A DNA stretch of 64,000 nucleotides. Source: Patescibacteria group bacterium (lineage in GTDB: Bacteria; Patescibacteriota; Patescibacteriia; JAHJFT01). Both the position numbers and the translations under genes were made by a program. The stretch lies in NCBI GenBank assembly GCA_028710985.1, contig JAQTTB010000001.1:167397-231396 (forward strand), given 5' to 3'. Below, piece after piece: positions 19,635 through 22,112 of the stretch (the stretch's first letter is position 1; each line of letters begins with the position of its first letter). Under the pieces are notes generated by a model that was given only the letters and a program-made list of their open reading frames with translations, ran no database searches and was not told the origin of the DNA.

Positions 19635-22112
19635 TCAAATCACAATATTCACGAGCTTCCCGGCCACGAAAATAATCTTCTTGGGCGCTTTGCCGTCCAA
19701 AAATTTTAAAACTTTTTCGCTCTTGAGCGCGAGATTTTTCGCTTCGTCTTCCGTGATGCCAGCCAGAACCTTTATTCTGTCGCGGATTTTGCCGTTCACC
19801 TGAATAACAAGCTCGATTTCTTTGAACTCAATAAATTCGGGATTATAGCCCGGCCAATCGGATTCGAAAATCGAAGTCTTGTGCCCGATCCGCGACCAGA
19901 GTTCTTCGCAAATATGCGGCGCAAACGGCGCGAGTAGCTTCAGGAAATCCTGCGTGTCGTCGCGATCAAGCAGATACCAGGCTTCGTCTTCCTCTTTTGC
20001 TTCCCCGGCCGCGGCCGTCACCTTGTTCAAAAACGACATCAGGCTCGCCACCGCGGTGTTGAAGCCCATCTCGTCAATGTCCTCGGTTACTTTTTTCACG
20101 GTCCGGTGCAGTTCGCGCACGAGCTCGTCCTCGCCGGCGTGCAACGGCTTCTCCCCGCGCTTTTCGTAAAATTTTATCATCTCAATCTGGTGCGAAAAAA
20201 TATTCCAGACCTTGTTCAAAAAACGATTCGCGCCTTCCACGCCCTTTGTATCCCAGGCCACCGGCTGATCAAACGGCCCCATGAACATTTCATACAGCCG
20301 GAAAACATCGGCGCCGTATTTTTTTACCATTTCGTCCGGATTCACCACGTTGCCGCGCGATTTGCTCATCTTCTCCCCGCCCTCGGCTAAGATAAGGCCG
20401 TGCGAAGTTCTTTTGCGGTACGGTTCGTCGGTCGGGACCAATCCTTCATCATACAAAAATTTATTCCAGAACCGCGAATACAAAAGATGCAGAGTCGTAT
20501 GCTCCATGCCGCCGTTGTACCAGTCCACCGGCATCCAGTATTTTAATTTTTCCATGTCCGCGAAAGCTTTATCGTTTTTGGGATCGCAATACCGGAGAAA
20601 ATACCATGAGCTTCCGGCCCAGTTCGGCATGGTGTCGGTCTCGCGCCGCGCCTCTCCGCCGCACTTCGGGCATTTTGTTCTGACCCAGTCCGTAATTGCC
20701 GCGAGCGGCGACTCGCCCGTATCGGTGGGCTGATATTTTTTCACTTCCGGCAAGAGAACCGGCAAATCCTTTTCAGCGACCGGCACAAAACCGCATTTGG
20801 GACAATTTACGATCGGAATCGGCTCTCCCCAGTATCTTTGCCGCGAAAAAACCCAGTCGCGCAGTTTATAATTAATTTCGCGCGAGCCCAAATCACGCTC
20901 TTCCAGATATTGCAACATGTCCCGAATCGCTTGAGGCACGATTTTCCCGTTTAAAAATCCGGAATTCACCATAATTCCGTCGCCCGTAAATGCCTCTTTT
21001 TTTATATCTCCGCCCTGCACCACTTCACGGATTGGCAGTCCGTATTTTTTGGCAAACTCCCAGTCGCGCTGATCGTGCGCCGGCACGGCCATGATCGCGC
21101 CGGTGCCGTAGCCCGGCAAAACATAATCCGCGACATATATCGGAATCTCTTCATTGTTCACCGGATTAACTGCCATAACTCCCTCAAGCCTGACGCCGGT
21201 TTTTTCCTTGTTTAGATCCGACCGTTCCAAATCGCTTTTTCGCTTTGCTTTTTCCACATATTCTCTAATCTCTTCCTGATTCCTAATTCCTAATTCCCGA
21301 TTCCTAAGAATCTCATGCTCCGGCGCCACAACCATATAAGTCGCCCCAAATAAAGTATCCGGTCTCGTCGTAAAGACCCTGATTCCTGATTCCTGATTCC
21401 TGATTCCAAACTCAACCTCCGCTCCCTCGCTCCGGCCGATCCAATCAGTCTGTTGTTTGGAAATGCGCTCCCAAAAATCAACATCATCAAGCCCGGAAAG
21501 CAGCCGCTCCGCGTATTCCGTGATCTTCAGCATCCACTGTTCTTTTTCGCGCTTCTCTACCTGGCCGCCGCAACGCTCGCACTCCCCGTTCACCACCTCT
21601 TCGTTCGCGAGCCCGATCTTGCATGATGGGCACCAATTAATCGGCATCTTGGCCTTGTACGCCAGGCCTTTTTCAAAAAATTTCAAAAACATCCATTGCG
21701 TCCATTTGTAATATTTCGGATCCGTGGTATTCACCTCGCGCGACCAGTCAAACGCAAGCCCGAGCGACTTGAGCTGCCGCTTGAAATTCGCGATATTTTT
21801 TTCCGTGGCCGCTCTCGGATGAATGCCGGTTTTGATCGCGTAATTTTCGGTTGGCAGACCGAACGCGTCCCAGCCGATCGGGTAAAGTACGTTAAAACCC
21901 TGCATCCGGCGTTTGCGCGCGATAATGTCGAGCGCCGTGTAGCTTCGCGGATGCCCGACATGCAATCCCTCGCCCGAGGGATAAGGAAATTCAATGAGAC
22001 AATAATATTTCGGCTTGTCCGAAAAATCTTTGGCCGCAAAAATTTTATTTTTTTCCCAAAACTTCTGCCACTTTTCTTCAATTTTTTTAAAAATATATTT
22101 GTCCATAATCAT
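19635..22112 (-). CDS. leuS: Leucyl-tRNA synthetase
   Basis: Contains the HVGHPRSYT class I HIGH motif and the [8 protein letters not shown] KMSKS motif, plus the editing-domain signature [21 protein letters not shown]. It carries in-frame heptad-repeat-derived insertions encoding [10 protein letters not shown] and [10 protein letters not shown]. Confidence 0.95.
   Translation of the reverse strand: [825 protein letters not shown]
21273..21407. repeat. Heptanucleotide tandem repeats (ATTCCTR)n at 21273..21308 and 21379..21407 inside the leuS coding sequence
   Basis: ttcctgattcctaattcctaattcccgattcctaag and ctgattcctgattcctgattcctgattcc. The same unit occurs intergenically at 41799..41887. 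Confidence 0.85.

Follow-up and report, generated by a model that had tools for sequence, protein, structure and literature searches.

The leuS gene of a Patescibacteria group bacterium, which encodes leucyl-tRNA synthetase (LeuRS), contains two tandem arrays of a seven-nucleotide unit, one on each side of the coding sequence for its editing-site motif. We analysed the 64,000-nucleotide stretch that holds this gene (contig JAQTTB010000001.1, positions 167,397 to 231,396; called the window below, with coordinates counted from its first letter). The unit, AGGAATY, is present at three loci within these 64 kb, two in leuS and one intergenic, about 20 kb away. Heptanucleotide repeats are known as an abundant and unexplained feature of bacterial intergenic DNA. 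Repeats with a unit length that three does not divide are expected to be purged from essential genes; the core of leuS houses them, read in three frames. The features concerned are the following.

19635..22112, minus strand: leuS, leucyl-tRNA synthetase, 825 residues (open reading frame call, similarity, Pfam)
21378..21407, minus strand: site-1 heptamer array, sense GGAATCA x4.3, perfect, 30 nt, codons 236-245
21306..21377, minus strand: coding block between the two arrays, containing TTRPDT (conservation, Thermus thermophilus alignment)
21273..21305, minus strand: site-2 heptamer array, 4.7 units, 33 nt, codons 270-280
41799..41833, plus strand: intergenic left arm, degenerate, AGGAATC AGGAAGC ATGAAGC ATGAATC AGGAATT (Tandem Repeats Finder 41795-41832)
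41855..41887, plus strand: intergenic right arm, (TTCCTGA TTCCTAA)x2.4 (Tandem Repeats Finder, period 14, 100% matches)

The leuS gene and its two heptamer arrays

The leuS open reading frame is intact, and the HVGH, KMSKS and editing-domain motifs are all present in its product. Pfam domains tRNA-synt_1, tRNA-synt_1_2 and Anticodon_1 were detected in this protein, which matches T. thermophilus LeuRS with an E value of 2e-245 and is identical to a Patescibacteria group bacterium LeuRS of 823 residues (P0001) except for two additional N-terminal residues. The arrays flank the block VFTTRPDT...APEH, one on each side. On the basis of homology to T. thermophilus and of established knowledge, we take TTRPDT to be the threonine-rich editing-site motif of bacterial LeuRS, located in the connective peptide 1 (CP1) editing domain. 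T246, T247, R248, D250 and T251 are invariant in all 28 aligned LeuS orthologues.

Both leuS arrays are direct repeats in a single orientation. Tandem Repeats Finder reported a period of 7 at each of them, with 4.3 copies and 100% matches at site 1 (21378-21407) and 5.0 copies and 82% matches at site 2 (21273-21307), where the sense strand reads AGGAATC GGGAATT AGGAATT AGGAATC AGGAA. A two-unit search pattern, ATTCCTRATTCCT, allowing at most one mismatch, matched 13 times in the window against 0.28 expected, and all 13 matches fell inside the three repeat loci. The AGGAATY repeat, first noticed in the initial annotation of this DNA, is therefore real and non-random. That annotation had also correctly translated both sites (residues 236-245, and within 270-280), placed the repeat family outside genes as well (41799-41887) and recognized both orientations of the unit in the intergenic spacer, which folds as a hairpin. 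For the dispersal in the genome that it also proposed, the 64 kb analysed give three loci. Two of its details have to be amended: with 4.3 and 4.7 units, the arrays measure 30 and 33 nt and are thus not 21-nt multiples, and instead of lying upstream of the conserved editing entry they are found on either side of it.

Periodicity was scored as the lag-7 run and compared with 2000 synonymous resamplings of the same peptide, using the gene's own codon usage. The observed scores of 23 at site 1 (resampled mean 4.7) and 14 at site 2 (resampled mean 3.8) were reached in none of the 2000 resamplings, and the highest lag-7 run elsewhere in the window leuS scored 5. Furthermore, AGG makes up a minor share of the arginine codons of leuS (5 of 47), and all but one of these AGG codons lie inside the arrays. 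As the periodicity exceeds that of the resampled peptide and the AGG codons are clustered, the primary feature at both sites is the DNA repeat rather than the encoded peptide.

The AGGAATY orientation contains a stop codon in no frame. The reverse orientation reads GAT TCC TGA or AAT TCC TAA, so that only AGGAATY can be translated, as follows directly from the sequence. Three units encode a hydrophilic heptad, R-N-Q-E-S/L-G-I, the I, N and E of which fall where orthologues also carry I, N and E/K. Folding of positions 21260-21420 gave no RNA structure at the leuS arrays beyond that of shuffled sequences (z -0.25), and no Rfam match was obtained at any of the repeats.

Segment length and structure

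The repeats had initially been described as inserted into leuS. We surveyed the length of the two segments in 70 non-redundant LeuS orthologues. The site-1 segment (F235-V246) has 10 residues in the window, which is the modal length (32 of 70 orthologues), and the site-2 segment (H266-Y285) has 18, again the modal length (47 of 70), with 17 or 18 residues in 66 of the 70. Each of the 16 array-bearing orthologues that were checked has 18 residues at site 2. No gap occurs at either site in the alignment of 28 orthologues. Site 1 aligns gap-free to PVEGKEVRIP of T. thermophilus LeuRS and site 2 aligns to this protein with a one-residue difference; T. thermophilus and other bacteria do not have the heptamer pattern.

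An AlphaFold2 model of LeuS (mean predicted local distance difference test score, pLDDT, 80.3; local pLDDT at the arrays 78-84) places site 1 in a strand E225-235, a five-residue turn 236-240 (RNQES) and a strand E241-246 that leads into TTRPDT (P0001 numbering). Site 2 is modelled as coil and short turns ahead of a helix, 277-288. The alignment of orthologues that had been suggested as a check, together with the model, confirmed one half of the original expectation, namely that the segments are variable and peripheral (a beta-hairpin turn, and coil before a helix), but revealed no insertion.

Arrays in orthologous leuS genes

We compared leuS DNA from 8 relatives, obtained by exact-protein look-up, and from 80 metagenome loci. 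The LeuS proteins compared are 46-77% identical to that of the window, and for the array-bearing ones the closest named proteins are Patescibacteria LeuRS. With a period-7 lag-run score of at least 12 as threshold, and comparable thresholds for other periods, 24 period-7 arrays were found in the leuS genes, which cover about 70 orthologues, and 18 in their flanks; periods 5, 6 and 8-12 gave 0-1 arrays each. Array density is about 4.8 times higher in leuS than in the flanks (24 in 175 kb vs 18 in 635 kb), a ratio that is not a clean statistic because the lineages are related. The leuS arrays cluster at a few places, which are, in window residue numbering, 234-245 (8 lineages), 268-280 (8 lineages), 368, 440, 638-657 and 703-726. 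The units differ between lineages, with GGAATCA, GAATCAA, AAAGTCA/G, AATTTTC and GGATTTG at site 1, and AGGAATY, AATCTCA, AATCACA, AATTACA, AAGAATC and AATTTTA at site 2. The initial annotation had allowed for coincidence, in which case orthologues without a DNA repeat would share the peptide; no such orthologue was found, and what orthologues have at these sites are heptamer arrays of their own.

When the four site-2 units are set in a common phase, 86% of them read xxxAATy, with AAT as the core. The variable triplets of the four successive units are AGG/GGG/AGG/AGG in the window, TCA four times in L163, ACA four times in L134, and ACA three times plus ATA in L139. At the variable positions, units from the same lineage have an identity of 0.66 vs 0.40 for orthologous units from different lineages, and none of 5000 permutations reached 0.66. 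This excess of within-lineage over between-lineage identity is the mark of homogenisation inside individual arrays. In many LeuS lineages, the homologous sites thus carry period-7 arrays with a common in-phase AAT core, the units of which have been homogenised lineage by lineage. Two LeuRS from outside the Patescibacteria (P0101 and P0105) also carry I-x-N-x-x-E-V, in which I and N coincide with those of the last site-2 unit, so that a plausible seed of the site-2 array was already present.

Site 1 gives a less uniform picture. Ten residues are retained in the window and its near relatives, whereas lineages with AAAGTCA arrays have 13-46. Gain of length was seen in other lineages (L004 and L163). 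In L004 (P0009; LeuS 74% identical), a true insertion of 24 residues with (GAATCAG)5, the same unit as in the window, lies in the zinc-finger loop (L004 4176-4214), after P0001 residue 438, that is at about window residue 440. Arrays can therefore lengthen the protein elsewhere, as this insertion and the longer site-1 segments of the AAAGTCA lineages indicate, but neither leuS array of the window does so.

Other in-frame additions were noted in LeuS orthologues. GC-rich palindromes occur in frame, CCGCCAGCTGGCGG (PPAGG) being present twice in P0035/L007 (leuS 3508-5943). Further insertions are PAFANASAGRQ in P0043, PAFAPGAELRQ and GPAFALRRGSGLRQ in P0009, and one of 22 residues at site 2 in P0008. 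These sequences appear to be a second kind of repeat, resembling repetitive extragenic palindromic (REP) sequences, that is tolerated in coding loops.

Arrays outside leuS

The left arm of the intergenic repeat begins 3 nt past the stop codon of a class II fructose-bisphosphate aldolase gene, and the right arm stops 6 nt ahead of the ATG (41894) of a pfkB-family kinase gene. The two arms pair as a hairpin (-32.3 kcal/mol, z -4.87), at which a scan for consensus terminators found no convincing terminator. Arrays in the ATTCCTR orientation were also observed on the sense strand, 3-20 nt before apparent start codons, in several Patescibacteria, at the position expected for a ribosome-binding site (L036 1291-1310, L071 7059-7078, L106 306-325, L118 7213-7232, L033 3253-3272 and window 41855-41887). 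In L106, L033 and the window, an inverted AGGAAT array precedes the ATTCCTR array and thus forms a hairpin just before the start.

In a collection with one genome per species, (AGGAATY)3 was found in at least 120 stretches, for a chance expectation of about 4 by our own arithmetic. Among the matches listed are Bacteroidota, Acidobacteriota, Verrucomicrobiota, Clostridia, Selenomonadales, the cyanobacteria Rivularia and Calothrix, and about 12 Patescibacteria. The matches listed are mostly intergenic and abut stop or start codons, often beside other heptamer arrays (GGGAATT, AGGAGTT). Long open reading frames span 11 of 129 arrays among the matches listed, and the credible coding cases are mostly from Patescibacteria. 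A protein search with (GIRNQES)6 returned only "hypothetical proteins" of 46-74 residues without Pfam domains, which are long intergenic arrays miscalled as genes.

In-frame arrays confirmed by Pfam were found in genes for MurG, DnaE, a WecG-family transferase, an S-adenosylmethionine (SAM) methyltransferase, Fmt and a glycosyltransferase among the matches from the collection, and in those for PorA, KsgA/RsmA (two), TopA (two) and RlmN in the flanks of the leuS loci. LeuRS is thus not the only protein concerned. Coordinates of in-frame arrays in the PorA, KsgA/RsmA, TopA, RlmN, MurG, DnaE, WecG-family and Fmt genes are:

L143: 1414-1444, 12102-12132, 12440-12472
L182: 10840-10864, 11150-11181
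L206: 10681-10712
L047: 7043-7069
L094: 6819-6845
L099: 5159-5178
L070: 7005-7024

The unit AATTTCC occurs at five places, coding and non-coding, within 14.5 kb of L143, in parallel to AGGAATY in the window.

Other features of the window

The gene order PP2C phosphatase - leuS - (SAM methyltransferase) - comEC of window positions 17467-23020 is kept in the close relatives L001, L002, L003 and L006; the small methyltransferase gene between leuS and comEC is present in the window and in L003. As comEC adjoins leuS, a DNA uptake sequence was considered, and it was dropped in view of only three loci in 64 kb and of tandem arrays rather than single dispersed motifs.

A gene for a REP-associated tyrosine transposase is located at 56421-56909 on the plus strand (NCBIfam NF047646, 117.5 bits vs a cut-off of 80). 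Upstream of it lies a perfect 16-nt GC-rich inverted pair (CGGCGCCGGCGGCGAC; 56267-56282 / 56356-56371), and a similar GC-rich palindrome is found about 480 nt downstream (57391-57407). A link between this transposase and the leuS arrays was set aside, since the latter do not have the palindromic REP form. The neighbouring gene at 56971-57360 encodes a four-helix-bundle protein (Pfam 23S_rRNA_IVP, TIGR02436) and is bracketed by inverted AT-rich heptamer-like arrays (56920-56960 / 57351-57391; 41-nt arms, 76% complementary). The layout of 56920-57391 resembles an rRNA intervening-sequence cassette outside rRNA; a tRNA gene follows it (57470-57542). The region 48368-52539 holds 23S rRNA (49749-52539, minus strand) and 5S rRNA (48368-48483), with two tRNA genes (53520-53713) upstream of 23S on the minus strand. 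A 16S rRNA gene was not among the matches at Rfam gathering thresholds anywhere in these 64 kb.

Discussion

The heptamer arrays of leuS recur at the same codons across LeuRS proteins that are only about half identical, and they evolve in concert at a fixed segment length. We consider it rather likely that they are coding-embedded heptanucleotide simple repeats, a class over-represented in many prokaryotes, kept uniform by length-neutral slippage or conversion under purifying selection and of no benefit to LeuRS. The arrays would not have come in as extra DNA, overwriting instead 10 and 11 existing codons in two parts of the CP1 editing domain that are variable and structurally peripheral. They stay translatable thanks to the stop-free AGGAATY orientation and to the harmless hydrophilic heptad that three units provide. 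Homogenisation could proceed through slipped strands that misalign and realign, or through short conversion from one unit to its neighbour, and turnover in three-unit steps is conceivable as well, while purifying selection would remove products with a shifted frame, a stop or an altered loop length. A slippage- or conversion-type process thus probably keeps the arrays uniform, and the arrays probably do nothing for LeuRS. They would be a tolerated by-product of a heptamer-specific mutational bias, which would leave a frameshift-prone spot in an essential gene.

Several points weigh against this interpretation. The mechanism is one that we infer. Simple slippage should make the segments vary in length, but all array-bearing lineages have 18 residues at site 2, so that a length-neutral homogenising step must be assumed. 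With an array density about 4.8 times higher in leuS than in its flanks, neutral tolerance alone is not obviously sufficient. Finally, L003 and L163 share the unit AATCTCA at site 2 though their LeuS proteins are only 56% identical, which could mean selection at the sequence level.

A more far-reaching version, which we put forward tentatively, is that Patescibacteria and their relatives have an active heptamer-specific homogenising process that rewrites loop-coding DNA of essential genes while leaving its length unchanged. Such a process might be a property of the replication or repair machinery, or the work of a dedicated enzyme. If so, repeat dynamics and not protein-level selection would dictate RNQESGI, KSQKSKV and ISNLKSQ in LeuRS, DnaE, TopA, MurG and others, and some codon positions of LeuRS would have stayed heptamer arrays from a time that precedes the divergence of these lineages.

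Alternatively, the arrays could be selected cis-acting nucleic-acid elements whose periodicity is kept by selection and not by a mutational process, for instance tandem mRNA or DNA sites recognized by a repeat-binding protein, or Shine-Dalgarno-like AGGA clusters at which ribosomes would pause on entering the editing domain. Periodicity at a strictly constant site-2 length, across lineages with only 45-76% LeuS identity, would agree with such a role, as would the roughly 4.8-fold enrichment over the flanks and the AGGA and GGA motifs included in AGGAATC. The same unit is also found 6 nt before a start codon at 41855-41887, with comparable arrays 3-20 nt before starts in L036, L071, L106 and L118, and TAACTGA repeats near start codons have been suggested to act in regulation (PMC4679880). 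However, the units at one site are wholly different between lineages (AGGAATC, AATCTCA, AATCACA, AATTACA, AAAGTCA), and no single binding or Shine-Dalgarno-like motif is conserved; the leuS arrays have neither predicted RNA structure (z -0.25) nor an Rfam match, and arrays occur in many unrelated genes. We therefore regard this alternative as unlikely. Ribosome pausing, which the AGGA motif had brought to mind, was set aside as orthologous arrays use AGGA-free units (AATCTCA, AAAGTCA).

The initial annotation had raised the idea of a small mobile element colonising surface loops. A mobile or selfish element of this kind would have come in by in-frame insertion, as Rickettsia palindromic elements reportedly do. 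The 24-residue insertion with (GAATCAG)5 in L004, the 13-46 residues at site 1 of AAAGTCA lineages against a modal 10, and the presence of one unit at several loci of a genome are what such an element would produce. At the two sites of the window, however, no length has been added relative to orthologues or T. thermophilus, and the leuS arrays show no terminal inverted repeats, target duplication or hairpin, in agreement with the lack of inverted-repeat structure in the fold (z -0.25). Orthologous arrays share their phase and their AAT core, which points to descent in place, and we find insertion quite improbable for these arrays.

It is even less probable that selection on the protein (I-x-N-x-E...) and AT-rich codon use together produced the DNA periodicity, the intergenic match being coincidental. 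Orthologues do share I, N and E/K, the motif I-x-N-x-x-E-V extends to P0101 and P0105 outside the Patescibacteria, and L002 retains the peptide IISNLKDRISNFDEV with little DNA periodicity (score 6). Nevertheless, for the window, L003, L134, L163 and site 1 of L140, none of the resamplings reached the observed periodicity, and for L139 1 of 2000 did (p = 0.0005); T. thermophilus and other bacteria do not show the pattern. Moreover, the homogenised triplet passes through three reading frames and encodes unrelated residues in them, so that protein-level selection cannot explain its uniformity.

Finally, a contingency or phase-variation locus, in which gain and loss of units would switch leuS or its editing as in NeuO, is hardly credible: a perfect 4.3-unit tract can slip in principle, with a shift of frame for any change but three units, and recombination between the two direct arrays could by arithmetic delete 96 nt in frame and remove TTRPDT, but the tracts lie mid-gene in an essential single-function enzyme whose loss would be lethal and not adaptive, they number 4-5 units only vs 2-93 in NeuO (PMC3046976), the length of site 2 is held, and the full-length orthologues are all intact (tblastn matches cover nearly the whole query). 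Nothing supports the 96-nt deletion, which was discarded.

If length-neutral homogenisation of the arrays is confirmed, leuS would offer a natural system for the study of this process in microsatellites, and a clear example of a DNA-level process, and not protein function, choosing the residues of an essential enzyme. In practical terms, IRNQESG or KSQKSKV in Patescibacteria proteins should be read as repeat-derived, and the underlying tracts as prone to frameshifts in assemblies and in cells.

Comparison with known repeat systems

Rickettsia palindromic elements, the subject of work by Ogata et al. in 2000, are reportedly found in frame in protein-coding genes, where their 100-150 bp are said to add a peptide segment. 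They resemble the leuS arrays in that repeated DNA is tolerated in frame at permissive places of housekeeping proteins, but the leuS arrays are direct tandem repeats of 30-33 nt that add nothing.

Short tandemly repeated repetitive (STRR) heptamers are said to have been described in heterocystous cyanobacteria by Mazel in 1990. STRR and, more generally, long simple sequence repeats (LSSR) share with the present arrays the tandem 7-nt units and the strong preference for period 7; one unit recurs at several loci of a genome, for which the window provides three loci in 64 kb. In contrast, known arrays of this kind are described as mainly intergenic, whereas two arrays of the window are inside the conserved core of an essential gene without gain of length, and distant orthologues have counterparts of them at the same codons. 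Among long simple repeats, heptanucleotides are the commonest in most prokaryotic genomes, and polymerase slippage has been proposed as their origin (Mrazek 2007, as cited in PMC4679880).

The closest unit in sequence is GGGAATC, one base from AGGAATC, which forms dispersed arrays in Xanthomonas that are under-represented in coding DNA (Rehm et al. 2015, PMC4692102). GGGAATC / GGGNATC repeats of Xanthomonas and Nostoc are dispersed and, like the AGGAATY arrays, typically comprise about 4 units, and they lie within 50 bp of gene ends, as does the intergenic array of the window (PMC4692102). GGGAATT units also adjoin AGGAATT units in several of the (AGGAATY)3 matches listed. They differ in that AGGAATY has no G-tracts and lies within coding sequence at two of the three loci found in the window.

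TAACTGA repeats of Beggiatoaceae, cyanobacteria and Bacteroidetes are dispersed as well, many of them directly before start codons (MacGregor 2015, PMC4679880). Here too orientation matters for coding, one orientation having stops in all frames, and the few copies within open reading frames encode LSVISYQ. These copies are, however, mostly found at protein ends or in hypothetical open reading frames, and recurrence at homologous internal sites of a conserved enzyme is not reported (PMC4679880).

A coding heptamer read in three frames is known from NeuO of the Escherichia coli K1 prophage CUS-3, where three AAGACTC units of the poly-psi tract encode RLKTQDS and only copy numbers divisible by three preserve the frame (PMC3046976). 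The NeuO repeat begins two nucleotides past the start codon of a non-essential capsule-modifying enzyme and ranges from 2 to 93 copies; it is a highly variable on/off switch and activity tuner (PMC3046976), in contrast to the leuS tracts, which are internal, of 4-5 units and of fixed length in an essential gene.

In the literature that we covered, which was incomplete, no account was found of in-frame heptamer arrays in Candidate Phyla Radiation genes, and for none of the systems compared here are short arrays of fixed length described that occupy homologous internal codons in an essential enzyme. The spacer array (41799-41887) agrees with the intergenic, near-gene-end habit of the LSSR class, whereas the two leuS arrays do not, and it is in this respect that the present case varies from those already known.

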